A DNA stretch of 64,000 bases, taken from NCBI GenBank assembly GCA_024137785.1, contig JAHRHZ010000217.1, forward strand, positions 9,281,641-9,345,640, in the 5' to 3' direction. The notes below the pieces were generated by a model that did not search any database, had not been told where the DNA came from, and worked only from the letters and a program-made list of their open reading frames with translations. The position numbers and the translations under genes are program-made. This DNA comes from Ginglymostoma cirratum (lineage: Eukaryota). Shown here one piece after another: positions 4,990 through 60,968 of this stretch. How positions within the stretch are numbered: position 1 is the stretch's first letter; each line of letters opens with the position of its first letter.

Positions 4990-5120
4990 AAACCAAAGAA
5001 CTGCAGATGCTGGAAATCCGAAACAAAAACAGAAAATGCTGAAGAAACTCAATAGATCTGGCAGCATCTGTGGAGAAAAAACAGAGTAATGTTTTGAGTC
5101 CAATGACCCTTCTTCAGAAT
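4990..5120 (-). mobile_element. Hammerhead-type PLE terminal remnant
   Basis: Minus strand CTGAAGA-A-GGGTCATTGGACTC-AAAAC-ATT (GAAA decayed) plus the shared tail. Confidence 0.65.
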
Positions 5121-5261
5121 TAATAATATCTAGGAAAAGGTGGCATGTATGCTGGAGACAGGGAGTGAGGGTGGGGTGATGGTTGGGGGGTGGGGAAAGA
5201 ATGAACCACTAGGTGAAGATGAAGCCTAGAGAAAGAGGATGCTTAATAAGCACTTAGATGA

Positions 5262-6110
5262 AGGGATTAAAAACCATTTATTCAGATTTGCTGAAAGACA
5301 GGTAAAATTACAAACCATGCCAATTGAAGCATAAAATGACACAGACCGATTAATAGATTAAATAAATGGACAGATCTGTGGCAAAGAATTTCAATGCAGA
5401 CAAACGTGAATTCATCCACTTTGAACCTAAAAAGAATAAAAAAGGGTACTTTCTAAACGATGGAAAGTCAGGAACAGTGAAGGTCCAAAGAGGCTCATGC
5501 ATCCAGATACTTAAATCATTAAAATGTTGTGAACAGATACAGAAAATAATCAAAATGGCTAATCAAAGGCTGAAAAAACCAGGAGTTAGAATTTATGCCT
5601 CAGCTATACGCATCCTCAGTTAGACCACACTTACAGCACAGTGAGCAATTCTGCTGCACATTGGGAATAATGGTGTTGAAGGAAGTATAATATGAAATGG
5701 AATTACAAGGAAAGATTACACAAACTTGACATTAGTATTTAAACAATTAATGAGTGATTCGATTGATGTTTTCAAGATATTAAGGGTAACAAATAAGGTA
5801 GATAGATACTTCTACTGGTTGGAGAGTTCAGGACTAAGGAGCACAGTTTCATATTAGAACCAGACCTTTCAGAAGTCAAATAGGGAACAATTCTACACGC
5901 AAAGGGTGGTAAGAGGATGGAACTGTCTTCCATGAGAGGCAAATGATGTTAGGTTGTTTGTTAACTTTCAATCTAGGATTAATACATTTTAACCGAACAA
6001 ATTAAGTGTTCAGGGCAAACACGAACATTTGGACTGAGGTTAAAGATCAGCTGTGGCCTCATTGAATCGCAACACAGGCTCGAAGAGCTAAAAGCTCAAC
6101 CCCTGTTCCC
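5262..6110 (+). mobile_element. CR1 3' fragment
   Basis: FAED-like remnant, FNADKREFIHF, and the conserved 3' motif CTACACGCAAAGGGTGGT...TGGAAC. Confidence 0.65.
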
Positions 6111-6509
6111 ATGTTGTTACATCATATTGTAGGAAATGCGACAGTCAGTTTGCTGACACGGAGGTCCACAAACAACAATGACATAATGATCAGATTATCT
6201 ATTTTATTACTGTCTGGCCAAAACTCCAGGGAAAACTACTTTGCATTTCTTCAAAGCATTTTAACAGCGCTGCACTCCATTAGTACAAATCTGAGTGTCA
6301 GCTTAGATGATTGTGTTCAAATTTAAGGACTAAAACTTGTACCAAGATCTTTTGAGAATCGGATTGCCATGACTGAGTCACTCTTGACATTAAAACTACG
6401 GAGTGTATTTCTAACATGAACATTCTTATACAGAGCTAGCACTGTTATTCATGTTCATGGTAGAATGTGCTGTTTCACAAATATGAGAAACTATATCATA
6501 TAAAATGGA

Positions 6510-7238
6510 AACCAAAGAACTACAGTGCTGTGAATCAGAGACAAAAATAGAAATTGCAGGAAAAGCTCAGCAGGTCTGGCAGCATCTGTGGAGAGAAATC
6601 AGAGTTGATGTTTCAGGTCGAGTGACCCTTCCTTAGAACTTGCCCAGTTCTNNNNNNNNNNNNNNNNNNNNNNNNNNNNNNNNNNNNNNNNNNNNNNNNN
6701 NNNNNNNNNNNNNNNNNNNNNNNNNNNNNNNNNNNNNNNNNNNNNNNNNNNAGATTTGAAATGCATCAGGGGATATGGAAAGAAAGTGGGAATATGGCAT
6801 TGAGATTGAGGATCAGCCATGATGGTTTTGAATGGTGCAGCAGGGTTGAAGGGCCGAATGGCCTACCCCCGCTCCTAGTTTCTATGATTCAGACCGTGTG
6901 TAGGAGCTAATTACAGCAGCCTTTCAGGTACTGCCTTTCAGATGTTAATAAGCTTCAATGTGAAGATATTTCCTATCAGTCCTTTCTCCTGTCAGAAGCT
7001 CACTGAGGATCACTGCAGCTGACATTCCCAAATAACAGACAGCATGGCCCCCTTCAGAAGCAAGTGTCTATCAGAAATAGAAGCAAACACAGAGATCAAG
7101 TCCCCAAGCAGCAACTTGCCCTAAGCTCAGTCTCCCAGTTCTGAGGAAGGGTCACTCGACCTGAAATGTTAACTCTGATTTCTCTCCACAGATGCTGCCA
7201 GACCGGCTGAGCTTTTCCAGCAATTCTTATTTTTGCCC
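6510..7238. mobile_element. Inverted pair of hammerhead elements around the assembly gap
   Basis: 6541-6640 is the approximate reverse complement of 7136-7236. Plus core CTGAGGA...GAAATGTT at 7141-7170; minus core mutated to CTAAGGA. Confidence 0.7.
6652..6751. other. Assembly gap (100 N)
   Basis: Run of exactly 100 N, probably a placeholder length. Confidence 0.99.
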
Positions 7239-7239
7239 A

Positions 7240-8990
7240 TCATAGAGTCATAGAGATGTACAGCACAGAAACAGACCCTTCAGTCCAACTTGTCCTTGCC
7301 GACCGTATGTCCTACATAAATTTAGTCCCATTAGCCAGCATTTGGCCCATATCCCTCTAAACCCTTCCTATTCATATACTCATTCAGATCCATTTTAATT
7401 GTTGTAATTGTACCAGCCTCCACCACTTCCTCTGGCAGCTCATTCCATACATGCACCACCGTCTGCATGAAAAAGTTGCCCCTTAGGTCCCTTTTAAATC
7501 TTTCCCCTCTCACCTTAAACCTATGCCATCTAGTTTTGGACACCCCCACCCTGGAGAAAAGACCTTGTCTATTTCCCCCTATCCAAGCCCCTCATGATTT
7601 TATAAACCTCTATAAGGTCACCCATCAGGGATATAGCCCCAGCCTATTCAGCCTGTCCCTATAGCTCAAACCCTCCAACCCTGGAAACATTCTTGCAAAT
7701 CTTTTCTGAACCCTTTCAAGTTTCATAACATGCTTCCTTTAGCAGGGATACTAGAATTGCACATAGTATTCCGAAAGTGGCCTAACCAATGTCCTGTACA
7801 GCTGCAACATGACCTCACAACTCTTATATTCAATGCCCTGACCAATAAAGGCAAGCGTACCAAATAGAGATAGTAAGAACTGCCGATACTGGAGTCATAC
7901 CAAACACCTTCTTCACTATCCAATCTACCTGCGACTCCACTTTCAAGGAACCACAAACCCACACTCCAAAAGTGTCTTTGTTCAGCAACACTCCCCAGGA
8001 CCTTACAATTACTTGTACAAGTCCTGCCCTGGTTTACCTTTCCAAAATGCAGGACCTTAATTTATCTAAATTAAACTCCATCTGCCACACCTGGGCCAGT
8101 TGGCCCACTTGATCAAGGTTCCATTGTACTCTGAGATAACTTCCGTTGCTGCCCACTACACCTCCAATTTTGGTGTCATATGCAAACTTACAAATCATAC
8201 CTCCTATGTTCCCATCTAAATCATTTATATAAATGACGAAAAGCAGTGGACCCAGCACTGATCCTTGTGGCACACCGCTGGTCACAGACCCCCAGTCTGA
8301 AAAGCCACCCTCCACCAACATCCTCTAACTTCTACCTTCAACCCAGTTCTGTATCCAGACGGCTAGTTCTCCCTGTTTTCCATGTGACCTAACCTTGATA
8401 ACCAGTCTACCATGAGGAAACTTATTGAACACCTTACTGAAGTCAATATAGATCACATCCACTGCTGTGCCCTCATCAACCCCCTTCATTACTTCTTCAA
8501 AAAACTGAATCAAGTTAGTGAGACACAATTTCTCACACACAAAACCATGTTGACTATCTCTAATCGGTCATTGCCTTTCCAAAGACATGCAAATTCTGTC
8601 CCTCAGGGTTCCCCCCAGCAACTTGCCCAACAGCGACGTCAGCCTCACCAGTCTATCATTCCCTGGCTTTTCCTTACCACTTTTCTTAAATGGTGGCATC
8701 ACATTAGCCAACCTCCAGTCTTCTAATCACTCCCCTGTGGCTATCAACGATACAAATATCTCTGCAAAGGGCCCAGCAATCATTTCCCAACTTCCCATAG
8801 AGTTCTAGGGTACACTTGTTCAGATCCCAGGGATTTATCCACCTTTATGACTTCCAGCACCACCTCTGCCGTAATATGGACAATTTTCGAGATGTCGCTA
8901 CTTATTTCCCCACATTCTCTGTCTTCCATCTCCTTCTCCACAGTAAACACTGGTGCAAAATGCTCATTTAGTATCTATCCCATCTCCTGC
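7240..8990 (-). mobile_element. CR1-clade (HER1-like) LINE, 3' about 1.75 kb, degraded
   Basis: Minus ORFs CLTNLIQFFEEV..VDVIYIDFSKVF, SGVPQGSVLGPLLFVIYINDL, KFAYDTKIGG, WNELPEEVVEA; CTCTATGA-type tandem tail at about 7241-7255. Confidence 0.92.
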
Positions 8991-15118: not shown

Positions 15119-15274
15119 GAGCAAATGACTGCAGATGCTGGAATCTGTACAGAAGACAAAAGAATGCTAGAAATCACAGCAGGTCTGGCAGCATCCATGG
15201 AGAGAGAGCAAGCTAATGTTTTGAGTCTTGAAATGCTACCTGACCTGCTGTGATTTCCAGCATTTTTTGTTTTC
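15119..15274. mobile_element. Fold-back element of the same family with the hammerhead mostly deleted
   Basis: Arms ATGCTAGAAATCACAGCAGGTC / GACCTGCTGTGATTTCCAGCAT; degenerate TSD ATTATTTAAATGAAG (15104-18) vs ATTATGTAAATGATG (15275-89). Confidence 0.65.
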
Positions 15275-17030
15275 ATTATGTAAATGATGCTGTTCCTTCA
15301 TAAGGACGCTCCAGTTTTTATGGTGACTACCTGGTAATTATTTAAGAAATGATTGCTGGCTCAGAAAATCTATACTTTCCTTTGCTGGAACTTAAAATTT
15401 TTTTTTTTATTTTGTTCACAGGATGTGGGGCAACACTGAGTGGTACAGTATTTATCACCTATTCCTAATTGCTTATGGGGCATTTAAGAGACAACCACAT
15501 CGCTGTGGGTCTGGAGTCATGTATAGGCCAGACCAGATAAGGATAGCAGATTTCCTTCCCATTCGTGAACCAGAACTTTTTTTCCTCAAATGACAATTGA
15601 CACTGGTTACATGGCTATTGTTAATCATTTTTATTCCAGATTTTTTTATTGAATACAAATTTCACTTTCTGCCCCAGTGGCATTTGAACCGTTGGCCGGG
15701 TCATACAGGATTGTTAGATTAATGACACTATTGCCTCCCCATTTGTTAATTTGAACAAATAAGTTTTGTGGTTTAAAATTTTCAATCCGTATCCAGTTTT
15801 AATCCAGCAGAAATTGTGACCAGTGATGTAGTGTGTGGTAACGGGTAAAATTGTCCCTTCCAAAAATAAGAAAATACTTTTTTCTAATGACACTGGTTTC
15901 AGGCAGGATGTTGCTTAAATATGAACATATGTACAAGTGCATATAGACACTTAGGTCGGTGTTCTTGTGCGTATGTATGCATGTGTTCAATCTGGTATGT
16001 ATATATACATGTGTCAATGAATAAAACAATATGAGTGAAAAAAAATTGTAAAAAGTGAGCCTGAAAGAACTAAAAACAAGATGGCAAGATCACTGTGATA
16101 GATGGACTAATTTCCTTGAAATCAGATTGTTGATACTGTCTTTAAAAACTTGCAAAATGTATCTAAGAATTACCTGTCAATGCAGCTCTAATTTAAAGAC
16201 CTTGTTCTGACCAGTTATGAATAATCACCCTTTTTTTTAATACACTTTAGCTGCGACAAAAGAATATAAATTATTTTTAGCATGTCGCTAAATACACTTC
16301 CATTTAAAATATAGTTCAAATTGCAAAATTAATGAGCTAATTGCAAGGTTTTCTCCAGTGGAAGAAGGAGGAATTTTTATTACGTACTAACCCCAGAACA
16401 AAGAATAAAATATGATATTAAACCCAAACATACACAAAGTTTAAAAAGTGTGATGTACCTAGTACAGGCTGGAAGGTAAAACAATATGTATTTAAAAATC
16501 CTTAAAGTTATTCAAGTATTGATTTCAGCCAGGGACCACGATTGCTTAATGTATGACTCTTATCCTCAGCAGTTGGTAAATATTACAGAAGTCTTCGAGT
16601 TCTCATTGAATAGATATTTCTGCAATTTGATTCATCACCATGTGTTACATTGCAAGAGACTGAGAGAAAGCTGAGAGTGAGGCACCCTTCCAGCTCTGCT
16701 ATTGCAAGTCCAGTTTTCTCACTCTCTCTCTCTCTATCTACTCTGCCTGAAAACAGTTGCTTGAAATACAGCTCATTTGTGTATATCCAAGTTCAGGCTT
16801 CATTGTTCCTCCTCCCACTGTATAATCTGCAGGAAGTGAAATTTCATTTCCAGAAATGAAATTTCCAGGAAATGAAATTTACCCAGAAAGATATAACTCA
16901 AACAGCAGATACATATTTGCATGACAATGCCTTTTTATAATGATGTTAATTCCTGCTCTGACTGATTTTTTTTCTTCCTGATAATTTCATGAATTGGCTC
17001 AAGCTGTGGTCAGGTAATCTTAAATCAGTG

Positions 17031-18834
17031 GACGTCCAGTCCCTATACACCTGTATTCCCCATGCAGATGGCCTAAAGGCCCTCTGCTTCTTCCTGTCCT
17101 GCAGAACTGACCAATCCCCCTCCACTGACACCCTCATCCGCTTAGCCGAACTCGTCCTCACCCTCAACAACTTCTCTTTCAATTCCTCCCACTTCCTACA
17201 GACAAAGGGGGTGGCCATGGGTACCCGCATGGGCCCAAGCCATGCCTGCCTCTTTGTAGGTTACGTGGAACAATCCCTCTTCCGTACCTACACTGGCCCT
17301 AAACCCCACCTCTTCCTCCATTACATTGATGACTGTATCGGCGCCGACTCGTGCTCCCACAAGGAGCTGGAACAGTTCATCCACTTCACCAACACCTTCC
17401 ACCCCAACCTGAAGTTCACCTGGACCATCTCCAACACTTCTCTCTCCTTCCTGGACCTCTCTGTCTCCATCTCAGGAAACCACCTAGAAACCGATGTCCA
17501 TTTCAAGCCCACTGATTCCCACAGCTACCTGGAATACACCTCCTCCCACCCACCTTCCTGCAAAAATGCCATCCCCTATTCCCAATTCCTTCGCCTCCAC
17601 CGCATCTGCTCCCAGGATGAGGCATTCCACTCCCGCACATCTCAAATGTCCTCATTCTTCAAGGCCCGCAACTTCCCCCCACAGTGGTCGAGAACACCCT
17701 CAACCGTGTCTCCCGCGTTTCCCGCAACTCATCCCTCACACCCCGTCCCCGCAATAACAACCAAAAAAGAATCCCCCTCGTCCTCACGTACCACCCCACC
17801 AACCTCCGCATCCAACGCATCATCTTCCGACACTTCCGCCATCTGCAATCCGACCCCACCACCAAAGACATTTTTCCCTCCCCACCCTTGTCTGCTTTCC
17901 AGAGGGACCACTCCCTCTGTGACTCCCTTGTCCGCTCCACACTCCCCTCCAGCCCCACCACACCCGGCACTTTTCCCTGCAACCACAGGAAGTGCTACAC
18001 CTGCCCCCACACCTCCACCCTCACCCCAATCCCAGGCCCCAAGAAGACCTTCCACATCAAGCAGATGTTCACCTGCACATCTGCCAATGTGGTATACTGC
18101 ATCTGCCGTACCCGTTGTGGCCTCTACATTGGGGAAACCAAGCGGAGGCTTGGGGACCGCTTTGCAGAACACCTGCGCTCAGTTCACAACAAACAACTGC
18201 ACCTCCCAGTCGCGAACCATTTCAACTCCCCCTCCCATTCCTCAGATGACATGTCCATCCTGGGCCTCCTGCAATGCCAGAGTGATGCCACCCGAAGGCT
18301 GCAGGAACAGCAAATCATATTCAGCCTGGGAACCCTGCAGCCCAATGGTATCAACGTGGATTTCACAAGCTTCAAAATCTCCCCTCCCCCAACCGCATCC
18401 CAAAACCAGCCCAGCTCGTCCCCGCCTCCCTAACCTGTTTTTCCTCTCACCTATCCCCTCCTCCCACCTCATGCCCTACCCCCATCTCCTATCTACTAAC
18501 CTCATCCCGCCCCCTTGACCTGTCCGTCCTCCCTGGACTGACCTATCTCCTCCCTACCCCCCCCACCTACACTCACCTTTACTGGCTCTATCCCCGTCTC
18601 TTTGACCTGTCTGTCTCCTCACCACCTATCCTCTCCTCTATCCATCCGCTGTCCGCCTCCCCCTCTCTCCCTATTTATTTCAGAACCCTCTTCCCTTCCC
18701 CCATTTCTGATGAAGGGTCTAGGCCCGAAACGTCAAGCTTTCCTGCTCCTATGATGCTGCTTGGCCTGCTGTGTTCATCCAGCCCCACACCTTGTTATCT
18801 CGGATTCTCTAGCATCTGCAGTACCTATTATCTC
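17031..18834 (+). mobile_element. Penelope-like retroelement (Neptune-like), 5'-truncated: RT + Cys linker + GIY-YIG endonuclease + 3' hammerhead
   Basis: RT motifs DVQSLYT, QTKGVAMG, YIDD, FLDL; linker CNHRKCYTC; VVYC...LYIGETKRRLGDRFAEH GIY-YIG. One -1 frameshift near 17680. Perfect 16-bp TSD TAATCTTAAATCAGTG at 17015-17030 and 18835-18850. Confidence 0.93.
18704..18737 (+). ncRNA. Minimal type-I hammerhead ribozyme motif in the PLE 3' end
   Basis: CTGATGA (18707-13), A, stem II GGGT-CTAG-GCCC, GAAAC, GTC with predicted cut after 18734. Stem III is reduced to the palindrome ACGT; stem I (TTT/AAG) is weak. Confidence 0.7.
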
Positions 18835-20297
18835 TAATCTTAAATCAGTGTTTTTTTCTGTCTTTGAAACTATTTTACTCCATGAGGGGTTTCAGGTATT
18901 GAAATCAGATGGTGGAAGTTAAAAATTGGAAGTCCATATTTTGCTACCAATGTAACAATGGTATAACTTACCTTCAGTAAACTTTAGTCACTACAGTGGT
19001 AAACTAACATTCATTGTAATGCAAGTTACCTCTTTGCAGTTCAGACAAATTATTTACTACTACAAGTCTCTTACGGTTTTTAGATTTGATTGAATAGCCT
19101 CGTACATTGTAGAAATATTTTCTATACAGTAAGTAAAATGGTGTTTAATGTTAGCATTTTTCATTTACTAGTTTATAACTGCTGTGTGCCTTTGTGAGAT
19201 CATTATTGGTGCTTTGTCACTTGATCACTTTATCACATGATTTCTGTGATTCACATTTAGTCTCGGATGTTTGATATCTGTTGAGCACATTAAATGCAAA
19301 TTATTTTGGCACCTAATGTTCTTGCTTTAATCAATAGCTGTAGTCATACTACTTCAAACAATATTTCATCTAACATTCTACAGTTTCCTGTAAAAGGCAG
19401 TAATAGGCCTCTTCTTTTGTTCTGCAAAAAACACTAGCTTGGGCAGAATTGAGCAATAAGACACAGCCCTGAAAAATACTGCTCTGAATTAGGCCTTAAG
19501 GCAAGGATGTCATTTCACCTTGAGTCTTAAAGTGCTGGGCACTGGCAGGTGAGCCAGTCTGCAATGGTCATTTTGGTATAGACGGGATGGGAGAAAGAGC
19601 AAATCAGTTGAGAGGAGGCGGGGGTGGATTTTCTTTTGTGCTTCAGTGTCGCCCTCTTGCAAGAAGCTCTCCCCTTCATTCCTCCCGACTGCAGCTCCAC
19701 CAAGCTCAAACCCTTGACCCCTATCTCTGTACTCCCTAGACCTCCAAATCACTCTCCACCGTAAAAGCCGAATGGTGGTGATTTCCTTTCCACAGTCACT
19801 GGTTACTTGCCTGTCTCTGCTCGGCGTTGCTTTTATTCCCTTGCACCTGCTGGGATGTCCACTATTGAGTTCTGACACTGCAGTAAAACAATTACGTGGG
19901 TGGTCTAGTCAGTGGTGGCCCATTTGGGTTATTGATGTTTAAGTCCTGGCGATGGCAACGCTTCTGATTGTCAAGGGAAAGGGATTAGGCATTCTCTTAT
20001 TGCTGAGGGTATTGGCTGGCACTTATATAACTTGTGCCACTTATCAGTTCAAGTCTGAAATGCTGCATTAATAATGCTCTATTACTATCTGAGGTTTAAT
20101 GTGAATGGAGTACAACATATGTGAACATCAGTGAACAGCCCCATTTCTGACCTTATGATGGAGCAGTTGGAAATAGTCGAGCCAGGATGCTGTGTCAGTG
20201 CTTTGGCTTGAAGTGATACATATGATGATGTAATGAATTACAAAGTTGACTTTTCTTTCCACTTTGTCTTGAATGTGTTCACTCCAGGGTCCAAGCG

Positions 20298-23033: not shown

Positions 23034-23356
23034 TGTAGAGTCTTTTCAGTGCAGAAGCAGTCCATTGAGTCCACACTGACCCTCTGAAGAGCATCCCACC
23101 CAGATTCACCCCTTACCTTATCTCTGTAACCCTACATTTCCCATGACTAACCCCCCTAACCCACACATCCCTAGATACTACGGGCAATTTAGCATGGCCA
23201 ACCCACTTAATCTACATATCTTCGGACTGTGGGAGGAAACTGGAGCAAACCCACACAGACACGGGGAGAAAGTGCAAACTCCACACAGACCGTCACCCGA
23301 GGGTGGAATTGAACCCTGAGACAGCAGCGCCAACCACTGAGCCGCCATGCTGCCCC
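23034..23356 (-). mobile_element. HE1/V-SINE-like SINE
   Basis: Reverse complement of the 45354 family. Confidence 0.85.
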
Positions 23357-29133: not shown

Positions 29134-31010
29134 TTGAGGCCAGATGCCAACTCTCTGACATCTCCTACTATCCCCTCGATCATGACCCCACCTCTGTTCA
29201 CCGAGCCATCACCTACCAGACCATCAATAACCTCTTCACCTCTGGAGATCTCCCATTCACAGCCTCCAATCTGATAGTTCCCTAACCCCGGACTGCCCGT
29301 TTCTATCTCCTATCCAAAATCCATAAACCCGCCTTCCCTGGTCGACCCATTGTCTCTGCCTGCTCCTGCTCCACCAAGCTCATCTCCTCGTACCTCAGAT
29401 CCATTCTTTCCCCTTTGGTCCAGGAACTTCCTACCTACATTCATGACACAATCCACACCTACCACCTTTTCCAAAACTTTCTATTCCCAGCCCCCAACTC
29501 CTCATCTTCACCATGGATGTACAGTTCCTGTACACCTGTAACCCCACATGGAGGGATTAAAAGCCCTCTGATTCTTCCTCTCCCTTAGGCCCACCCGGTC
29601 CCCCTCCACTGACATTCTCATTCGCTTGGCTGAACTGGTCCTCACACTCAACAACTTCACCTTCGATTCCTCCCACTTTCAACAAACCAAAGGGGTGGCC
29701 TTGGGCATCCCATCAGCCTGAGCTATGCCTGCCTCTTTATAGAGGATTTGTGGAATAGTCCCTCTTCCGCAACTACACTGGCACCACCGCTCATCTCTTT
29801 CTCCGCTAAACTGATGACTACATTCGGTGCGACCTCGTGCTCCTGCAAGGAGTTTGAACAGTTCATCAACTTCGCCAATACCTTCCATCCCGCTCTCAAA
29901 TTCACCTGGACGATTTCTAACACCTCCATCCCCTTCCTGGATCTCTCCGTTCCCATCTCTGGAAACGGACTCACCATTGACATTTATTTCAAATGCACTG
30001 GCTCCCGCAACTACCTTGACTACACTTCCTCTCACCCACCCTCCTGCAAAAATGCTATCATGTACTCCCAATTCCTCTGTCTCCACTGCATCTGCTCTCA
30101 GGATGAGGTGTTCCATTCCAGGTATCCTCCTAATTTAGGGATCATAATTTCCTCTCCTCTGTAATTAAGGACGCCCTCAACCACATCTCCTCCATTTCCC
30201 ACACTTCAGCCCTTAAACCCCCTTCCCCCAACAACAATAAGGATAGAGTCCCCTTAGTCCTCACGTGCCACCTCACCAGCCTCCGAATACAAAGCATCAT
30301 CGTCCGACATTTCAACCATCTACAATCACACCCCACCACCCAAAAGATATTTCCCTCCCACCCCTGTCCACTTTCCACAGGAACTGTTCATTCTGTGACT
30401 CCTTCGTCAGCTTTACCGTCCCCACCAATTCCTCCACCACAACTAGTACCTTTGGCGGAGCATCTGCGCCCTGCACGCAACAGCAACCCGACCTTCCAGT
30501 TGCCATCCATTTTATTTTCCCCTCCCACTCCCCTGATGACACGCCCATCCTTGGCTTCCTCCACTGTCAGATGAGGTCAAATGTAAACTGAACGAACAAC
30601 ATGTGATATTTCGCCTCAGAAGCTTACAGCCCTCTGGCTATAACATTGACTTCACCAGCTTCAAAATCCCTCCACCCGCAGCCTTATCCGATGTTGAGCC
30701 TTCCCCCTCCTCCTCGCCTCCCTGACCTGACCTAACCTGTCCATCTTCCAACTCACCCTTCCCATTTACTAATCACAATAACCCCCTACCTGCATCCACC
30801 TATCTCCAACTCTCCTACCATTTTCCAGTGCGCCACCCCATTCCCTCTATGCATTTCTGGGCTCCCCTGCTCCTCCCCAGTCCTGAAGTAGGGTTTTGGC
30901 CTGAAACGTTGACTTACCTGCCCCTTGGATGCTGTCTGGCCTGCTAAACTTTTCCAGCATCACACCGATGGACCCTGGCTTCCAGCATCTGCCGTCCTTA
31001 TTGTCTTCTT
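29134..31010 (+). mobile_element. Older, degraded Penelope-like element (RT, internally deleted endonuclease, 3' hammerhead remnant)
   Basis: EARCQLSD..DHDPT, RFYLLSKIHKP/PGRPIVS and FINFANTFHPALKFTW..FLDLSV are homologous to the 17031 copy, with many stops and frameshifts. Hammerhead-like motif at 30879-30914. Confidence 0.88.
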
Positions 31011-32816: not shown

Positions 32817-33166
32817 TAGAATCCCTACAGTACAGAAGGAGGCCATTTGGCCTGTTGAATCCACACCAATTCTCCGAAGAGCATCCCAACCAGAACCAGC
32901 CCCCTATCATATTCTGTAACACCACATTTACCATGGTTAATCTACCTAGCCTACATCCCTGAATACTATGGGATAATTTAGCATGGCCAACCCACCTAAC
33001 CTGTACGTCTTTGGACAATGGGAGGAAACCAGTATATCCAGAGGAAACCCATACATACAAGGGGAGAATGTGCAGACTCCACACAGACAGTCACCCAAGA
33101 GTGGAATCAAACCCAGGTCTTTGGGGCTGTGAGGCAAAAGTGTTAACCATTGAGTCACCATGCCCC
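32817..33166 (-). mobile_element. HE1/V-SINE-like SINE
   Basis: Reverse complement of the 45354 family. Confidence 0.85.
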
Positions 33167-35955: not shown

Positions 35956-37337
35956 GGGCTCCTAGCTGCAGGACGAGTGTGGGTCCAGCACAGAATCAGG
36001 CATCGGCAGCTGGTCGGTGAGGTTGGCCCAGTGACAAAGAGATGGCAGCTGAAGAGTGGTGACTCAGATAATGGTGCGTCCAGCGCAGGCGGTGGTGGGG
36101 GTATCGTTGTTTGGCTGGCTCAGGGCTTGGGACTCGTGGTGGAGATGACAAAGTGAAGGCGGACTTTCTTTTGGCCCTTATCTTTTTATTCTTAAAATAT
36201 TGAAATGGTGGCAGATTGTGGAGACAGCTGAAACTTTTCATTGTATTTTGCTGTGTTATTCATTGTAGACTACAAGTGACATTAAATCATTATTCATTCA
36301 AATGCCTCAAGAAAAATAGGGATCTACAAAAATAATAACATGGATTTAAATTGGTCAGTGGAATTAGAGGCAATGTTGAGGATATGGTTGATGTTTGAGG
36401 TGACAAGAACAGACTGATTTAATTTATTTTTCTCCTTTAAGTGCTGTGTTAATGCTGCTGACTATTATTTGATACCATAAACGTTGGCTGTCTTACATGT
36501 AATTTGTCCAGGTTTAGACTTTGCTGGTAATTTGTGACACAGCCTCCCAAAGACATCTCACTATAGATTGTGTGACAGCACGAGCCTCACCCATGGTCCC
36601 CTAGGTATTATTGAGAAGTTTTCAACAACGTGTCAACGCAGCATCCTTCAGGGATAGAACTGCTTAACGAATTCCACTCTGAATGAGACTGGTCAATGCC
36701 AGTGTCAGATGTGGCCCATTTCTTCCAAAGAATAAGAACTTGAAAATAAGCAAAGTGTGTGCTTTTACATCATGCTTCATAAACAAGGAGAGATGCATTC
36801 AGTGCACCAATGTGAGATTGAGTGGTTGACCTCAATCTGCTTGTGTTGAAGGAGAAAAAAGCCCAGTCAGTCTCCTCTCTAAATTGCTTGGTGATCATAA
36901 GCAATGTATTTTTCTTTGTTTCAATCTTTATCCCCATCTTTATCTGTTTTGAAAAAATTATATCTGTTTTTGTAGCCATTGGTCCTGCTCTCGGTGGGGA
37001 GCAGGATTTATGTGGAATGTGCATTGAAGTCAAACGTGCAAAATTACTGTATTGGTTGGCCTTTTAAGAATGGCTGTCCTGCTGGGAATGAGTATCTTCT
37101 GTTTGGATATGCTTCCAATTGATTTATCACTTTCAGAGATCTGACAGGTCATCTTCACAGTTGCTCCAGTGTAATAGAGAGGCATGTAAATGTCTTCATT
37201 AATTTCCAGTTTGTGCTTTGAACTAGTTTGAAAGCTGATTATCTCACATTCAATGAGAATTCTTAAGCTGACCTTCTCCAGATGGCATCGAAACCTAAAG
37301 TTGTGAAACCGTTCTCAGGCAGAATATGATAAAGTCA

Positions 37338-37445
37338 ATTCTAAAAACAGAGTCATATTGGACCCGAAACATTAACTCTGTCTCTATTTCCACAGATGCT
37401 GCTGGATCTGCTGAGTTTCTCCAGCATGTTCTGCTTTTATTTAAA
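37338..37445 (+). mobile_element. Decayed hammerhead-type terminal remnant
   Basis: GAGTC-ATATTG-GACCC-GAAAC-ATT-AACT and the shared tail; CTGANGA box is destroyed. Confidence 0.6.
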
Positions 37446-38215: not shown

Positions 38216-39134
<919 letters not shown>

Positions 39135-42752: not shown

Positions 42753-45353
42753 TGATGTGGTTCAATGGTTAAATTACTGGAACTGGAAGCATTGGGCAAA
42801 AGGCAAGGATGAAATCAGAACTGAGAGACCATTATCAGAAAAGGCTGGAGATCTTTTCTGTGGAAAGGAAAAGTCTGAGAGGTGACCTGAAGGGGATCTT
42901 TAAAATTCTGAAAGGGGGTGATGGGGTGGACATAGAGATATTTCCATTTGTCATTTGTGGAGAGTTCAAAATTAGGTGATGTGAAAGAAGTGTCGTGCAT
43001 AGCATAATTACCAGCAGAAATCTGTTGTGACATTATTCCTGTTTTGAAGTTGTAAAATTTAATGTAGTTCTCTGTAACTTTTAAGTGTTGGTGTGCTGTT
43101 ATAAAATTCCAGCTGCATTTTACGGCAGACACGAGGTCTCCAGGATGCAATAGAAAAATGAATTGAGTTTTCTATGCTGGAGGGAATGAATCATTGTGAT
43201 CTTTTGACACAATTTAAATAATTTGATATAGTCTGGCTAATAAAGTGCTCAGTCAGAGGAAAAATATATAGGTTGGCAGCCATATAGGTTGGAAATATAG
43301 GCAGCAAATATAGGTTGGAAAGATCTCCCCAAAGCTGGGGAGAGCACATTATCAAGATATCTCTTCTTCAGTCATATAGGTAAGTTCAACCCTTACTCAC
43401 ACCTCAGGACAGAACCTGCAGCAAACCAAAGAAAAATAACTGAAAACAAACAGTATTGCTGACAGGCAGTACGGTATAGCTGCTCAAAAGGAATTCCAGA
43501 GAGAAAATCAGCCAAAGTTCAAATATGTGTATAGTTTCCAAGAATACACGTTATAGAAATATTTACGAGTACTACAGGAGCCATTCCAAACAGATCAAAG
43601 CAAAGCCATGCAGCTTTGGTTGAAAGAGACTATCTGCTTATTGTAGTAGAAGGAGGCAAAGGTTCTGAGAAACCGAAATAAAAGAATTACTTATTCTCTT
43701 GTTACCTTTGAATGGTGGGAGATGTTTGTCATGAGATTATTACTCGGTGGCCTCCTGAGATGCCAAATAGAGTGACGTGTTCCATGAAGCAAAGTGTTCC
43801 ATGGGTCAGGGATTCATGGCAAGCAACTTTCAAAGATGAATAGGCTAATTAAATGGTCAGATGAAAGGCAGATGGAATTTAATATAGAGTTTTCTAAGGT
43901 GATGCATTTTGGCAATAGAGATAGAGAAAGGCAATGTCAACTTAACGGCACATTTCTTTAAAAAACGTGCAGGAATTTGCGGATACATATGCATGATCTT
44001 TGAAAATGGCAGGATACATTGACAGAGTGGTGAGCAAAACACATGGGATGTTATGTTTCTTAAATAGAGATATTGAGTAAGAAAGCAGGGAGGTTATGTC
44101 ATCAAGATCCATACTGCACAAATTTTGAATCATCCAAAATTCGACTGCATAAATCCTGCCGGCACTTGACTTCCTCACTGCCCTCCTTTATCTCTTCATT
44201 CCTCAATGTGTTGATTCCAAAATCTTCATCTTTGTTTACAAATCCCTCCACTCTCCCATCACAATCCAGCAACTTCATGTAACTATGTCTTTTAACTTTC
44301 TGATTCTGGCCTCCAATATATTCTGCCTTCCCTCTGCTTGCAGCGTTGGTGGCAGACCTTTGAAGCTTTCTTTGTTTACTGTCTATTGCTGCCTTCCTAA
44401 ACTGTCCGTGGTACTTCTTTCTTTGTCTTTAAAAGCATCCATAAATGATACATACCTTGAACTGTTTCATTATTTACCCTGTATCAATTTCCATATGGGG
44501 CATGACAAAATCTTCATTGTCTAAAGTTGTTGCAATAGAAAATGGCAGCCTTGCATATGACATTATTTTCTATGTGGTTATACTCAGCCACTGAGAGAAG
44601 GTCATGAGTGATAGCCTCCGAGCCAGCGGGTTCAAGTGCACCCTCAGGACTTGATGGCCGCAAAAGGTGTGTTGTAATGTGGCCGAGTGACTTAATAAAT
44701 CTGTAAATTCTTCCAATATGCCTTGGCAGGGAGTAACAGTGGGAAGGATTCCTGGTCAGCACAGAACCAGATGGTGGCTATGGCGCAACAGCCTCGTGAC
44801 ATTAAAAGATTTCCCGCACAGGTTCATGCCATAAGCAAGTGCCACCTTTGTTCCAAGGGACTTTGGTAAGCCACCACTGGCACATAGTAGCTCTCAAATC
44901 GTTGTACAGTAACAAAAACAACACATATCTCTGTTCTTGCAGTGCCAGCTGTAACTGACTGAGCTAGTGATTAACATCAACCACTCCAACCTGAATCTTT
45001 ACCCAGTCGCAAATGTCCTTCCTCCTCAGGGCATGAGGGAATTTTTAAATTTAGGATTGCGATTCCCACAAAAGTTTATATTTAAATATAGAAATGGAAG
45101 AGTCAGGATTCAGTGTGTGAATGCTAAATACTGAAGCCAAGCGTTGTATTTCAGTTAAGAAAGCAGTTATTTTGCTGTCCAACTGGACTTTTATGATGTT
45201 TAATACTTCATTCAGTAGCACCAAACAGGATCGATCCATCACAACTTATCACCAATGAGAAAATGTGAATTCAAATCACTTCTCAAGGCTTCACTTCAAA
45301 ATTCCTCGACATGCAATTACTACAGAAGTAAATAATCGTGTTTGAACAAACAC

Positions 45354-49197: not shown

Positions 49198-50151
49198 TAT
49201 ATGGTATTATATAGTATATGACACCAAGTGGGTAAGAAGTGCAAAAGAGCGCATGAGACATGTAGGAAATTTTAAGGCTGCTGAGCCCAGATTTAAAAAT
49301 CTGTAAACCTTAAGAGAGTAGAAATGACTACGTGAGTGATAACATACATAATCTGAGGTGCTGGAGGGATTGAGCTCATGTTGCAGATGATGCAGTGGTC
49401 AGTTCAGTGATATTTAGCAAATTCTAGGAGAACAGAGACGGTGGGTGTTTTTTTTAGCAGACAAAATGCTGTAAACACTTCAGGTGTATGACAGTAACTG
49501 ATGAAAATGGTAACACTGTGATGCCTGCTTCATGTCCTTGGGTTTTCAAAGATCCAAGACATTATAATGCTCATAAAACACGTACCAAAACATCTTGCTC
49601 AACAGTCAAGTGAGTAACCTTTGCACACGAGCTTCGCATTGTAGTTTAGGTATCTAGGTGTTCTGTAAAATCTAATCTTATTAATTCTCCATGCAGGTTT
49701 TTTCTCAAATCAATTGGGATATGTGTAAGTCTCTTTTCCTCCTATTTAAAGAGGGCACTTAAATATTCTAAAATACATAGGATTATTTGTTTGTTCTTGT
49801 ATTCTGCATTTTCCACTGTTTGTGTGATGGTGTCCATCCCATCATAAGCATTTTAGGAGAATGGGACCTCTCTTCGGGATTTTACACAGATCTCTTGCCA
49901 GGAGACTATATTGTTTGGAGTCAACTGTGTTGATGTTGCTCATGTGAAGTTTCACTTATCTGGGACCTTAATGTAGAAAATGCATCAATGAGCACCAGGA
50001 GGAACAATAAAACAAAAAGTGGGCTTGTTTCACCTGCGTTGAAATGTTTGTCCAATTGTGAATGTTTACGAATAAATATTAGAATCAATAACTGGCTTTA
50101 ATGCATTTATGAGGGATTTCAAGCCAGAATAAAGACCCACTTGGATCCTTA

Positions 50152-50328
50152 GATAACACAGCGTGGAGCTGGATGAACACAGTAGGCCAGGCAGCATCAG
50201 AGGAGCAGGAAAGCTGACGTTTCGCGTCTGGACCCTTCTTCAGAAATCCTGCTCCTCTGGTGCTGCCTGGCCTGCTGTGTTCATCCAGTTCCACACCTCA
50301 TTATCTCAGACTCCAGTAGTTCCTCCTA
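50152..50328. mobile_element. 177-bp fold-back PLE-derived mini-element with a minus-strand hammerhead in the loop
   Basis: Inverted arms at about 50151-50210 and 50247-50308. Minus strand reads CTGAAGA-A-GGGTCCAGACGC-GAAAC-GTC (50216-50243). 15-bp TSD CCACTTGGATCCTTA at 50137-50151 and 50329-50343. Confidence 0.85.
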
Positions 50329-50659
50329 CCACTTGGATCCTTAATCTCTAACCTTCCCCACTATCCAGGGTCAGAGGTGGGGGCTGGGGAGGTGGTGGGG
50401 ACAGTGTTTATTGTTGCCTGTATCCCGCTGGTGAACACTTACATCACTTGGGATGCATCCCCAGGGTCAAAATGACCTGCAATGTGCTGTTCTGTGCCCC
50501 GTTAAAAAGTTGCACCCCAGAAGCTCAGAAGGTATCCGCATTTCAGTAATAAGGTGATTGCAATTTTGTACTTTTTAATAGGATGTCAGGGTGCAGTGAG
50601 CAGGTCCTAGAGTCAGAGAAGTGGACAGTCTTAATGGGGAGGCTAAGATGTTATGCGAT

Positions 50660-51480
50660 CAAAACAGAAAGTGCTCTAGAACCTCATTAGGTTCAGCAGC
50701 ATCTATGGAAAGAGAAACAGAGTTAGTGCTTTTCATCTGGTGTGGCGTTATCAGAACTGAAAGTGGTTAGAAAAGGTGTGTTATTTATGTTAGACAGAAG
50801 GGGAGCGAGACCAAATGGAATATATTGGAAGGCTGCACAGAGCCAAAGACGAAGGCAGAAGTCACATGACACCCGGTTATAGCTTTTGGAGCACAGCCCC
50901 TTTGTTAGGTACAGTGTGAGAGGAGAGCATGCAGACACAGAGTTTATAGGCAGAGAGATCAAGGGCGGAGAGATCAGAAAATTGTTCGACTGGTGTAAGT
51001 GGAGTGTCAGCTAATAGCTCTCTGAAGGCGACCAAGAGTGTTAGATGGTGAGTAAAGTCTTTGTAAAGTCGATGTCAGTCCCGTGCTGTCATGTCAATCA
51101 GGCAGAGCGATAGGAATATACAAAAGATGACATTTTAGGTCAGATACTGAACTGTAGGACTTTGCTGAATAAGGTAAACAAGACACAAACAGGACACGTG
51201 TGTGTTTGGCCAGGGTAGTAAGGGCTAAGGGGGAGGAGGGATGGTTTGAAGAATGTAAGAAAAATTGAAGTTACAGAGATCATGCTGTGAAGTTGTAGGA
51301 TTCAATATTGAGCCCTAGATGCTGTAAAATGCCGAGGTGGAACATGGTTAGCTGTCCCTCCAGCTGGCATTGTGCTTCAATGGAACAATGTAGTTGGCCC
51401 AGTACAGAAATTTTGCAGGTGAGCATGATGGTTTATTGAAATGGCAAGCAACCCTGGAAGATAGGGGTCATTCCCACAGA
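50660..51480 (-). mobile_element. Decayed 3' fragment of a second Penelope family
   Basis: Minus strand near 51290-51346 reads MFHLGILQHLGLNIESYNF, matching the PLE C-terminus IIFSLGTLQPNGINVDFTSF. It ends in the same tail and decayed hammerhead at about 50660-50760. Confidence 0.6.
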
Positions 51481-51964
51481 GAAAAATCAATTAGTCTCAA
51501 AACTCTGTTTCTCTGTCCGCAAGAATTTCTCTGGCATTTTCTATGTTTATTTCAGATTTTCTGCATTGACAGTATTTTGCTTTTTGTGAGATTTTTTACT
51601 GCTAGAAAAGTTTACAGACTCATAGGAAGGGACAAATTTGACCAGAATAATTTAGTTTAATTGCTTATCACATGGACCATGAAATGTTTGTGTTGGAACT
51701 TATATGATTTATAGCCGAGATGAACCAACAGCAAAATAATTAAGGATATTGATTGAGAAGCGGCACCTAGATCTTTGCGTTGTCTTTAAAACAACCATGG
51801 CCTGCAATCATTAGAATCCAATTTTGTCATTCAAAATGTATTTACTTAACACCTACAGACTGCTATTGAAGGATTGTTTATAAAAAAGTTGCACTTTTTA
51901 ATATCGTAAGTGATTTTCTTTTCCAGTGTCAGACATTATCTTCTGAACATGAACTCAACAAATA

Positions 51965-52150
51965 ACAGAAATAGAAACAGAAGTTGCTGGAAAAGCTCAG
52001 CAGGTCTGAGAACAGTTCTGAGGAAGGGTCACCGGAACCGAAACATTAACTCTAAATTTTTCTTCACCCATGCTGCCAGACCTGCTGAGCTTTTCCAGTG
52101 ACTACTGTTTTTGTTCCTGATTTACAGCATCTGCAGTTCTTTCCGTTTTT
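51965..52150 (+). mobile_element. Partial fold-back hammerhead element
   Basis: Inverted arm at 51975-52008, then AGTT-CTGAGGA-A-GGGTCACCGGAACC-GAAAC-ATT-AACT (core from 52018) and the shared tail. Confidence 0.75.
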
Positions 52151-52984
52151 AAATATTTGAAATACTGGCGCAATCTGCTTCTTTTTAATCCATGATCCTT
52201 GCTTAAACAATTACAAGTTGCATTCTAAGAAATTGTACGAGTGTAATGATTTGCCAAAAGTGCCGGTGAAGGTAACAACATCTGTGCAATTTTTTTCATC
52301 AGTGACCAGCCAGTTTCACCAAAACAATGCAGCTGTAATAAGTCCCTATGTCTGAGCCTGGAGGACTGGATTCAAGTCCCACCTGCTCCAGAGGTGTGTA
52401 ATAAGGGTTGATTAGAAATATCTGGAGATGAAACCGGTAAGAAATAGTGCAACACATGAAGGTTGAGCAATGACGATCTCCAATGAGTGAGAATGTAACA
52501 CCTCCCTTGACATTCATGACGTCACCATCACTGAATCCACTAGCATCAATGTCCTGGGCTTCACCCTCGACCAGGATGCTGCAACTACTAAAGCAGGCCA
52601 GAGGCTGGGAATTCTGCAGCAAGCGCCTAATCTCCCGATTCCCCAAAGCCTGTTGACCACCTACAAGCTGTGAGTCGGGAGAGTGTTGGAATTCTCTTCA
52701 TTGCTTAATTGAGAATGGTTCCAACAACACTCAGAAATAATCTTAAGACAGCCCAACCTGCGTAATCAGTACTTTCACCACATGGGCTGCAATAGTTCAT
52801 AAAGAGCCACCACCAATCTCTCTAGGGCACCTAGAGGTGGGTAATAAATGCTGGCCTAGCCAGTGATGCCTATATCTCCAGAGTGAATGCAGTACAGATG
52901 AGAAGAGCCAGAGGAGAAAGAAAACAAGCAAGCCAACAGATAGAAGGAAATAGTAGTGGAATGAACCTTAGTGTTTTTTCAATA

Positions 52985-53250
52985 ATAAAAGCAAAATACT
53001 GCAGATGCTGGAAATCTGAAACAAACACAGAAAATTCTGGTGAGATTTAGCAGGTCTGGCAGTATCTATGGAGGGAGAAACAAGAGTTAACGTTTTGAGT
53101 CCGATATGACTGTTTTTCAGAACTGAGTTCTTATTCTTCCGAAGCAGTTCCGAAGAAGAGTCATGTCAGGCTCAAAACCTTAACTTTGTTCTTTTTCCAA
53201 TTGTTGCTGCCAGGCCTGCTTCCTCCAACATTTTCTGTGTTTGTATCTGA
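52985..53250. mobile_element. Fold-back element with two back-to-back decayed hammerheads
   Basis: Left arm with a minus-strand motif at about 53085-53124, about 20-nt spacer, plus-strand motif at about 53146-53185, then a mirror-image tail. Confidence 0.7.
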
Positions 53251-53379
53251 CTTTGTTTTCCTGCTCACTTCCTAAACAAGAATCCCCAGCATTTTTGGAA
53301 GGCATTTTCTTTGATATTGATAGAAAATGGGTCTTTCCCTAGGATTCTTGAATGAGCTACTAACCTAATCCTCATGTCA

Positions 53380-53830: not shown

Positions 53831-53864
53831 ATTACTGCATCTTTCTGTGTCAACTTCTACTTTA

Positions 53865-57760: not shown

Positions 57761-59457
57761 CACTGAAATTATTTTAGGTAAAGGTGCTGCATAAATACAA
57801 TTTCTTGTAATCAACAATAGATGAGTGATGGATAAAAATGGAATAAGGTACGTACAGTGTTATAAATAGGAAATGTGACTGGGAAACATCATCTAATTTA
57901 TCAGGTCCTTCCATGATACATTTCAGGTAAACCCTACTAGCATAGGTCATTAGGAAGAAAGAATAATTTCTTCAGACATGTCCAATAGTCACTAGACTCA
58001 AGGTAAATAATGGCAACACAAGAACATTTATTTAATATCATTTGACATGTTACACATCCTTACTCTGGCATGTTTATAATCCTGGGCAACATTGAATCAT
58101 ATCTACCACACTTAAACCCTCTTAACATGTTCTCCTCCAAGTATTCATCCAACTTTTCTTTAATGGTTCACATTAACACAATATTAATGTTTTCAGTAGT
58201 TTCATTTACTCACTTCACATGGGAAAAAAAGCTTTCTCGGTCCCCAAGTCTGAGATTCATTAATTTTATCATCTACATCTTCAGTAACATTCAAACATTA
58301 CCTTAGAGTAAGGAACTAATGATATCCCCAAACCAGAAGTGTTGGGACAAAACCCTGAAAGCATTACTTGAAGCTGAGCACATTTAAGCTCAGATACACG
58401 ATAACTCCAGGAAGAAGCTATCAACATTTTGCATTTACAAGTTAGAGTCACAATTGTCTTAAGCGTATCAAGGTGTTAGAAAAAAAAATTCCTGGTGTGA
58501 GCACTGAACAAGAGGTGCTTTTGGGTACTGTACAATGGGCGTTACTTTTGTTTGGGATTTGTAAAGGAATTAATGGGATTATGCTTTTACCATGTGGTTA
58601 AAAAAAACTTCATATTGTTGCTACAAATAAATAGTTTGGTTTTTTTTGTTAAAAACTTCTGTTTTATTGTTAACACAAATTCTACAATGTTGTGTGGGTA
58701 TAGGTCAGTGAGAGACAAACTCATTGAAGCTAAAGTAAAACATGGTCTATCAGGCCAGATTTCAGTCCAAGATTTGACTTCTCCAGTGTTAAATTCATGG
58801 GATAATAGCAATGCAAAGACTGTGGCCTCAACAGGTCAGAGGTTAGGAATCCTGAGGTGAGTAACTCATCTTTTGACTCCACAAAAGCCCGTCTACCATC
58901 TACAAGGCACAAGACAGGGATGTGATGGAGTACTCGACTCCATCTTGTATATTGCCTTTGCGGTCAAAGGTATCACTTTTGCTTTTTATTCAAGTTCAGG
59001 GAGCTAGTTTGGGATATAGAGAAGTTGGGATAGGCTGAATGAAGAGACAATGACATGCCAGAAAGCTAATAAAGAGGGATTCCAGTGGTTTTTGAACACT
59101 AATATTAGATCACCATTGACTGCAGAAGCAAGTTATCATTACAGATCTACTTTAGAAGCAAGAAACTATCCTGAGAAACATGGTACGGGAGACATTTCAA
59201 GTGATCAGACTCTCACTTCAACTCCTAAGCTTTCTTCCTTACATACTGGTGGTTTCTGAATTAAAAGTATATGTGCAGCAGTTGGCATAGAAACTCAGTC
59301 CCGTGTTGGTCGTTGTCAAAGTTGAGGTACGTTTCAGGCTATCAAAATACTGAAAAGATAACAACAAAAGCATGATTAATTTCTTTAAGTGATGGGTTTT
59401 ATCATAGATTTTCAGGGTAAATTTTACGAACTAGCAGTCCAAGTGCTAAACTTTATT

Positions 59458-59580
59458 TCTGATTTCTGATTTCTGATTCGGATTTCTGATGAAGGGTCTA
59501 GGCCCGAAACGTCAAGCTTTCCTGCTCCTATGATGCTGCTTGACCTGCTGTGTTCATCCAGCCCAACACCTTGTTATCTC
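59458..59580 (+). mobile_element. 123-bp solo PLE terminal fragment with intact hammerhead core
   Basis: Nearly identical to 18703-18801; hammerhead at 59486-59513; 14-bp TSD TGCTAAACTTTATT at 59444-59457 and 59581-59594. Confidence 0.85.
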
Positions 59581-60574
59581 TGCTAAACTTTATTGGTGGG
59601 AATAAAGCTGATATAATCAATGCATCTGATTCACAACTCCTACCAACTTTGCAGTTGGTAACTTAAGCAGTTTTAAAATTGAGAAAGGTTACAAGCACAA
59701 CTTTCTGATCTCCCTGCAGTTGAGAGAACATCAGCATCAGGAGAGATAATTTGTAAAGTTTGCCCTTAAATAGAAACATTCAGATAATCACAAATCACTG
59801 CACAATGAACGTAATTTTTAAAAAAGGGATTATGATTCAAAAGTAGAACACAAGTACATTTATGTTATAAAACTTCAGTTTTTGAGGGAGTGGAAGGTAC
59901 AGAATTAACCAAATACTGAAAATGAAACAAGACAGCAGACGTTATAACAAACATCTCTCTAACATGGCAAGCACGACTGTACAAATGATAGCTTAAATTT
60001 TATCTTTTACATTTACATCGAGTGAATGCTGGATTTGTCTCTGTTGTGCGTGTGAGACTGGACATGTGTCAAGTTAGCTCTGAGGGCTACGTTTTCATAA
60101 AGTGTTCAATTTGGCTTGCTTTCCTGCTATTCATTGCTCAAAAAGAGTCAGAAGTGCAAGGTATGAACAAGCGTAATGACTCTGTCTCCCTGCTATGCGT
60201 GATCATCAGAATTAAGTCTAGCAGTAGGCTATTCGGCCCATCAATTCTGCTGTGCCATTCAATAAGATCATAGCTGACTTGATTGCGGCCTGAACTCTTG
60301 CCTCTTTTCTGTAAATCTTAATTATCTTATTGGCTAGAAGTCTGTTGAACTTATTCTTCAATGTATTCAGCGTCCTAGCCCCTTTTGCTGCCTGTGAGGA
60401 GAAAATTCCAGAGACTAATGACACTCTGAGCGAAGAAATTCTTCCTCGTCTCCATTTTAAATGGGAGACCATTTGTTTTGAAACTGGGCACCTAATTTTT
60501 GACTCTCCCACAACTAGAAGAATCAGTCATCACCCACCCTGTCAGGATCTCTATGTTTCAAAGAGATCATCTTT

Positions 60575-60735
60575 CATATTTCAAGTCCAGTGTGACTTCT
60601 TCAGAATTCCCTTAGAGTCTTCTTCTGAACCAGTTTTGAAGAGGAACCGTGTTGGACTCTCAATGTTAACTCTGCTTCTCTCTCTACAGAAGCTGCCAGA
60701 CTAGCTGAGTTTCTCCAGGATTCTCTGTGTTTGTT
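60575..60735. mobile_element. Decayed hammerhead-type remnant, partly inverted
   Basis: AAGTCCAGTGTGACTTCTTCAGAA (minus) followed by a plus-strand decayed motif and a GCTGCCAGACTAGCTGAG tail. Confidence 0.5.
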
Positions 60736-60833
60736 GTGAAAAATTAGCAGAATATACTTTCCTTATTATTAATATAGTATTCTGTTGTGAAACATTAGTA
60801 GCAAAATTATCAACGCAAGGCCACACAGCAGTT

Positions 60834-60968
60834 GTTCTGAGGAAGGGTCACCGGACCCGAAACATTAACTCTGTTTTCTCCTTCACAGATGCTGCCAGAC
60901 CTGCTGAGTTTTTCCAGCAACTTTGTTTTTATTCCTGACTTACAGCATCCACGGTTCTTTCGGTTTTT
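60834..60968 (+). mobile_element. Hammerhead-bearing short element (second subfamily)
   Basis: GTT-CTGAGGA-A-GGGTC-ACCG-GACCC-GAAAC-ATT-AAC: perfect 5-bp stem II and stem I GTT/AAC, followed by the shared GATGCTGCCAGACCTGCTGAG tail. Confidence 0.75.

Follow-up and report, generated by a model that had tools for sequence, protein, structure and literature searches.

Minimal type-I hammerhead ribozymes in truncated Penelope-like elements (PLEs), as well as the inverted copies and tails of such elements, have all been published, and the class of sequence considered here is thus already known. The copies that we analyzed come from a 64,000-nt stretch of the genome of the shark Ginglymostoma cirratum (GCA_024137785.1, contig JAHRHZ010000217.1, positions 9,281,641 to 9,345,640, forward strand; hereafter the window, in whose positions coordinates are given) and from random samples of the same genome, and most of them are reduced to what we call the unit, a segment of 100 or 135 nt that begins with the hammerhead. 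Our analysis suggests that these short copies are probably dead run-off cDNAs, made off the 5′ end of the uncleaved RNA of the PLE itself. As far as its available text goes (the same scope applies to the other sources cited), the published survey of minimal hammerheads describes the features that we find here, namely a bulged base before stem II, the G10.1-C11.1 pair, palindromic 15.2/16.2 and no loop 3, in mostly single, dispersed motifs that are likewise ascribed to truncated PLEs. However, its counts, obtained with a strict descriptor, are in the thousands (4,000 in the coelacanth, 9,000 in Xenopus), whereas exact whole-genome counts of three subfamily words of 35-41 nt are 28,568 (a 41-mer), 3,806 and 2,659 in this shark, and that text includes no shark and describes no fixed start.

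Insertions of endonuclease-encoding (EN+) PLEs are known to involve partial tandems, an adjacent inverted copy, a one-sided tail of 30-40 bp and target duplications, and the pseudo-long terminal repeat (pLTR) of a rotifer element contains TATA and initiator (Inr)-like words (PMC8557442, PMC3846280); all of these recur here, and the difference is the large share of insertions reduced to the unit alone. Poseidon of Anolis carolinensis (PAc; Frangieh et al. 2024, PMC11167929) resembles the shark element in having the hammerhead at the junction of the pLTR and the open reading frame (ORF), two internal start sites of the reverse transcriptase (RT) that define an optional tail, nicking and extension of both target strands, and an uncleaved RNA template. 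In PAc, however, the ORF starts within stem II, whereas in the shark the long ORF appears to begin about 45 nt behind the unit, and the linker of the shark element has a Neptune-type cysteine motif; neither run-off insertions nor a start site are reported in the accessible part of that study. Metazoan non-LTR retrozymes share with the present units the type-I hammerhead, the origin from a pLTR, the presence in a chondrichthyan and the many monomers (bioRxiv 10.64898/2026.07.22.740005, PMC7229834) but are defined as tandem arrays in which every unit has its own ribozyme, and the window contains no such array. A PLE expansion in a shark has also been reported (10.1101/443036).

All 16 hammerhead-bearing positions of the window contain the unit, whole or in part. 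A hidden Markov model (HMM) trained on 15 window copies gave 18 matches in the window. In 97 arbitrarily chosen 10-kb stretches of the genome, of which 558 kb in total could be read, it gave 173 matches, corresponding to 142 insertion events, and 0 when the same random DNA was reversed. This is one event per 3.9 kb, unit sequence making up 3% of the readable DNA; scaled to an assembly of 4.36 Gb, it corresponds to some 0.7-1.1 million events. This figure is only approximate, since 39 stretches could not be read and the calibration relied on 6 exact matches; the exact word counts given above are firmer. A preliminary description of this DNA, made from its letters, had listed about 15 dispersed hammerhead motifs, put their density at about one per 4-5 kb, assigned them to the minimal type-I class of PLEs and regarded most as short non-coding pieces pasted by PLE machinery. 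These proposals agree with the HMM support for every listed position, with the density in random DNA and with the finding of the unit in PLE pLTRs. An Rfam scan of the window detected no hammerhead family at E<=1 and gave five weak, unrelated matches. One decayed 3′ piece of a unit, at 51536-51584 (+), is additional to the earlier list.

The motifs are the ribozyme-plus-tail end of EN+ PLEs, in canonical layout. Three segments of the window carry, in broken frames, RT, a CxxxxCxxC linker and a GIY-YIG endonuclease, and end in the unit. RT precedes the endonuclease in the frameshifted pieces at 16962-18433, where the RVT_1 match (E 5.8e-4) falls below the Pfam cut-off; the GIY-YIG assignment comes from an Atlas feature search, in which the endonuclease clusters at a score of 0.96, and neither Pfam nor NCBIfam called this domain. 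The CxxxxCxxC motif lies ahead of the endonuclease in 17621-18433 and 62936-63403, and because a zinc-finger-like motif between RT and endonuclease is the criterion for the Neptune clade (PMC8557442), the element would, by its linker alone, be Neptune-type; the label Poseidon was dropped in favor of this assignment. The unit terminates long RT-GIY-YIG copies both in the window (18703 and 30879) and at other loci (L010/L111, L027), and the family-A unit found at 60834 terminates long copies elsewhere (L010, L027, L005). At the other end of the element, a walk to the N-terminus shows that the unit directly precedes the ORF in full-length family-B copies. Among 30 near-full-length copies that reach the N-terminus of the ORF, the unit or a piece of it precedes the ORF in 12: 3 of these start at the ribozyme edge, 2 start inside the unit, 2-3 have unreadable flanks, and 5 show the partial tandem of a pLTR, in which a further 250-370 nt of 3′ sequence stands ahead of the unit. 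Thus, RT with a C-terminal GIY-YIG domain, a partial tandem, an adjacent inverted copy with an optional tail of 30-40 bp and a hammerhead in the pLTR, the marks of EN+ PLEs, are all present.

The starts of the short copies are the central observation. We mapped the 5′ ends of 109 young copies in random DNA, after removing from the 173 matches 45 with less than 82% identity to a known parent, 18 with unreadable or cut flanks and 1 that gave no alignment. Of these ends, 20 lie beyond −30, 9 at −30 to −8, 44 at −7 to 0, immediately ahead of the catalytic core, and 36 inside the unit, so that the density is 5.5 per nt at −7 to 0, compared to 0.39 per nt at −30 to −8 and 0.5 per nt in the vicinity of the cleavage site. 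The predicted cleavage positions show no pile, with 4 ends at +25 to +32, including 2 at +28 and none at +30. The pile at −7 to 0 coincides with an Inr-like word (TCAGTTC, CCATTTC), and about 30 nt upstream the long copies, and not the short ones, have an AT box (TATAAA in family A, TATTTAT in family B, CATAAAT in older variants). In the window, parental upstream sequence was found in 4 of the 15 tested copies (5121, 18703, 30879 and 50758), two of which terminate RT-GIY-YIG remnants of 1.5-1.8 kb.

Copies that begin at this spot bear marks that the long copies lack. Exact genome-wide counts for the B1 subfamily are 17,383 for the parental CCCCC+ATTT, 1,424 for G+ATTT and 1,065 for A/T+ATTT (by eye, T makes up 29 of the first 100 A/T rows in the list), so that G accounts for 57% of the non-parental bases before ATTT, against 26% expected from genome composition. 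A form with an extra T, A+TTTT, has 2,845 copies. The parental flank was absent from all 30 G loci and all 30 extra-T loci sampled, and at 7 of 81 non-parental starts, a set partly selected for G, a preceding TCTG indicates partial re-copying of the first bases. Copying of a cap and a slip after run-off both explain the G, and both require the RNA to end here; the absence of these marks from long copies suggests that their template was continuous across the junction.

The 3′ ends are bimodal, at about +98 and +134 from C3, some 36 nt apart, in agreement with the two sites of RT initiation that delimit the tail of the anole element. An inverted arm lies beside the 5′ end in 41 of 110 young copies, and 36 of the 41 arms end at +89 to +101 or +125 to +135. 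Among 23 paired rows (three insertions are counted twice, and two rows are local duplicates), 16 combine one tailed with one untailed arm and none has two tails, and target duplications of length 8 or more occur in 18 of the 23, compared to 4% in shuffles. Downstream flanks of random tailed copies are shared in one local duplicate pair only. Such one-tailed inversions fit a single priming event on each nicked strand, the two strands using different sites, a pattern consistent with two-site priming on sense RNA rather than with the self-priming on antisense RNA proposed for head-to-head inversions elsewhere (PMC3846280). Many head-to-head pairs selected by pattern contain unreadable bases between the arms, as expected if hairpins are hard to assemble, and the pairs may therefore be undercounted.

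Under the run-off interpretation, RNA polymerase II would start at the A of the Inr-like word, 30 nt behind the AT box, and the RNA would begin with stem I of the ribozyme. The RT-endonuclease would nick the target and prime inside the leader, at +98 or +134, as has been demonstrated in vitro for the anole element; running off the end of the RNA, the RT would add a cap- or slip-derived G or an extra T, or re-copy the last bases. Being related to telomerase, this RT could slip back and re-copy repeatedly, as may have happened in the ATTTCTG run at 59455. If both target strands were primed, one per site, a head-to-head hairpin with a single tail would result, and long copies would arise from a circle or from a read-through RNA primed in its second, 3′ unit. 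The clean promoter-unit junctions of long copies would mean a continuous template, either read-through or ribozyme-circularized, and any action of the ribozyme would be confined to the parent RNA, where it would probably function in dimeric form or assisted by protein. More tentatively, we propose that the roughly million insertions record otherwise unseen steps of the Penelope cycle: an RNA start at the ribozyme, dual priming, copying to the cap, telomerase-like re-copying and a continuous template for long copies.

The modest interest of the junctions would lie in mechanism, as a record of the copying of PLE RNA. The PLE cycle is poorly known; according to the accessible text of Schostak et al. 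2008 (PMC2377424), there is no obvious mechanism by which the pseudo-LTR would be regenerated. The marks at the junctions predict the RNA start, indicate that the template in vivo is uncleaved RNA and provide a testable model of how the one-sided tail and the head-to-head inversion arise. The fixed start with its G or extra-T signature is not stated in the literature searched, which lacked most subscription papers, Repbase and Dfam, and the counts of G, extra-T and re-copied starts may be additions to knowledge.

Several points limit the run-off interpretation. In RNA, two raw runs, assigned by species label only, and one contig set show no pile of starts on the full-length junction, the reads over the unit being deep, equal on both strands and swamped by read-through of other copies; these data count neither for nor against the proposed start site. 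The TATA and Inr words are consensus matches, and the promoter is putative. The non-parental G can be explained by a 1-nt template slip as well as by a cap, and at a few loci it lies within the target duplication or the inverted arm. Target duplications of length 8 or more occur in only 7 of 26 solo short copies. The 39 unreadable stretches among the 97 possibly bias the random sample, and the haplotype comparison described below rests on small samples of long copies, 19 and 10. Finally, the internal, TATA-less promoter described for the Penelope of Drosophila virilis (PMC2377424) implies that short copies might still be transcribed.

That last point bears on the possibility that the short units form a non-autonomous family, similar to short interspersed elements (SINEs) or retrozymes, that is transcribed from an internal promoter and re-copied by the PLE protein. 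The sharp common start, the target duplications and the density of the insertions would all suit such a family, as would the variable ratio of short to long copies between clusters (3:8, 17:9), although short and long copies intermix in the clusters, and pLTR-derived tandem retrozymes have been described in one chondrichthyan (bioRxiv 10.64898/2026.07.22.740005). The preliminary description had gone further, suggesting a separate retrozyme-like class, poorly described in sharks, whose novelty would be lost on a full match to PLE pLTRs; such a match was found in pLTRs of this genome, and in autonomous elements the unit forms the pLTR end. When 90 loci, 30 per subfamily, were classed as short or long by reading the printed flanks, long copies were present in all three subfamilies (10/30, 9/30 and 14/30). 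In B1, the commonest haplotype of the short copies (49/79) is also that of the long copies (7/19), and neither in B1 nor in A (27 short, 10 long) did any variant show significant enrichment among the short copies, nor were SINE-like diagnostic mutations private to them; one variant that seemed private had long copies at 10 of 30 loci and was discarded. The junctions of head-to-head pairs differ between insertions, the ends are not set by ribozyme cleavage, and no arrays of units or tandem hammerheads occur in the window, the genome match lists showing only scattered head-to-tail neighbors. The shared commonest haplotype, together with neutral core decay and with only 3 of 16 window cores intact (see below), leaves an independent retrozyme unsupported. 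We therefore consider a non-autonomous family unlikely, while a minority of secondary masters among the short copies is possible.

A comparably low probability attaches to ordinary 5′ truncation, in which the fixed starts would reflect a stop of the RT near the hairpin. PLEs are typically heavily truncated at the 5′ end (PMC8557442), family B has at this spot the ATT that is preferred by the anole endonuclease (PMC11167929), and a third of the mapped copies (36/109) do begin further inside the unit. Nevertheless, the stop sits just past the hairpin rather than at its base, family A has AGTT in place of ATT, unrelated families share the AT box at −30, and only copies with this start bear a non-parental G, an extra T or re-copied first bases. 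It is far less probable still that the units represent monomers copied after ribozyme cleavage, or dispersed ribozymes selected for a host function. The conservation of core bases between families and the covariation of a few stems would suit this view, but the map of 5′ ends, in which starts at the predicted cut sites +28 and +30 are nearly absent, largely refutes it, and the frequency of intact cores (23/105 in random copies, 3/16 in the window) is accompanied by no excess conservation of the core. In addition to these explanations, a splice acceptor at the unit start, an idea taken from the intron of D. virilis, was rejected, as family B lacks the AG and the short copies share no upstream exon. 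Family-A units do contain, in sense orientation (for example, at 60862-60890), a possible splice acceptor made up of a branch point-like sequence, a pyrimidine tract and a CAG with an ATG after it; family B lacks it.

Within young families, the ribozyme cores decay neutrally. Non-CpG divergence does not differ between core and non-core positions, either in family A (5/120 vs 41/812, or 4.2 vs 5.0%, p 0.82) or in family B (10/370 vs 84/2613, or 2.7 vs 3.2%, p 0.75), and the full core is kept in 23 of 105 random copies. If a motif is called intact when it retains all core bases, the G10.1-C11.1 pair and the ACGU-H palindrome, the window holds three, at 18703, 50247 and 59482. Covariation between families is modest: in 15 distinct aligned copies, 88.9% of the cells pair and two-sided changes occur at 3 of 9 pairs; at least three such pairs were reached by 107 of 500 shuffles and the covariation score of 0.294 by 2 of 500, the shuffles ignoring relatedness. 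The stem I change from AGTT/AACT to AGTC/GACT pointed out previously at 30879/30911 is present but is the only C-G at that pair among the 15 rows. Of the stem II pairings said to persist across different loops, GAGTC-ATATTG-GACCC at 37341 contains an A.C mismatch, whereas three other rows have a compensatory A-U. The statement that most decay is of the CpG type proved overstated, CpG sites contributing 16 of 62 substitutions in family A and 22 of 116 in family B, although the per-site rate at CpG is about 4-5 times higher than elsewhere in young families.

Minimum-energy folding of four natural copies, as monomers and as dimers, did not yield the active conformation. In the fold predicted for monomers of family-B units (for example, 18703-18742), UGAUG of the catalytic core is base-paired with the CGUCA of the cleavage site, possibly a built-in off state. 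Minimal hammerheads are reported to cleave weakly or to require the protein of the element (PMC4209133, PMC11167929). Elsewhere in the genome, at G000:C8:13624952-13625062 (−), three exact family-A hammerhead words lie head to tail, 38 bp apart; such a mini-array, made of ribozymes alone, could adopt a dimeric fold.

The window copies range from PLE remnants to isolated units. A 5′-truncated family-B PLE at 17029..18836 (+) comprises frameshifted RT, the CxxxxCxxC linker, GIY-YIG and a 3′ pLTR with the TATTTAT box and the tail; its minimal hammerhead at 18703-18741 (+) is intact, with a predicted cut after 18734. An older 5′-truncated PLE at 29514..31006 (+) ends in the unit at 30879, with stem I AGTC/GACT and a mutated A9, and a family-B remnant at 62823..64000 (+), 94% identical to 17508-18683, has its hammerhead unit 20 nt past the window end. 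Parental upstream sequence also accompanies two old units on the minus strand: the one at 4990..5186 has a tail, about 65 nt of upstream pLTR and a decayed core, and that at 50655..50809 has no tail, about 50 nt of upstream sequence and an ATAAATA box at −30. The old short unit at 37337..37442 (+) is tailless, with stem II GAGTC and a decayed core.

Units that start at the ribozyme 5′ edge include, in family A, a tailed copy at 6508..6640 (−), with a mutated G5 and a mostly unreadable 5′ flank, and a short tailless copy at 7137..7237 (+). A young tailed family-A unit at 60834..60969 (+), whose genome-wide copies are 93-96% identical, has lost the palindrome of stem III through a CpG-type change. 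The short family-B insertion at 59444..59594 (+) carries an intact minimal hammerhead from 59482, and its end corresponds to the first initiation site; it is flanked by a 14-bp target duplication (59444-59457 / 59581-59594) and shows tandem ATTTCTG copies of the first bases of the unit at 59455-59490, the first seven bases being present several times.

Other copies are in inverted arrangements. The fold-back insertion at 15121..15277 (−) consists of a tailed unit without the 5′ half of the core (15121-15241, −) and a short inverted arm (15231-15277, +), and that at 50140..50318 (−) of a family-B unit (50140-50247, −), with intact core bases and one stem II mismatch, and an inverted arm (50246-50318, +). 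At 51966..52152 (+), a tailed family-A unit (52014-52152) is joined by a short inverted arm (51966-52010, −). The head-to-head pair at 52987..53252 combines a tailed unit (52987-53124, −) with an untailed one (53146-53252, +), both from the ribozyme 5′ edge, and an old pair at 60579..60736 combines a ribozyme-only arm (60579-60608, −) with a unit (60632-60736, +).

The window has other features as well. An open frame at 38216-39016 (+) encodes a coiled coil of about 170 amino acids and is likely a host exon; it resembles the JAKMIP family, and the Atlas gives only generic coiled-coil matches (JAKMIP1 at 0.86). The window probably lies in intronic sequence of this gene. A repeat of 200-350 nt with a tRNA-like head, presumably a shark HE1-type SINE, is present in five copies (11534, 24897, 32816-33170 (−), 45357 and 23063-23350 (−)). 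An RT-like frame and repeated segments at 40897-41283, 7240-7690 and 42289-42753 we take to be remnants of CR1/L2-type long interspersed elements, and a tandem repeat of 61 bp occupies 35662-35943 (4.7 copies, 83% matches).

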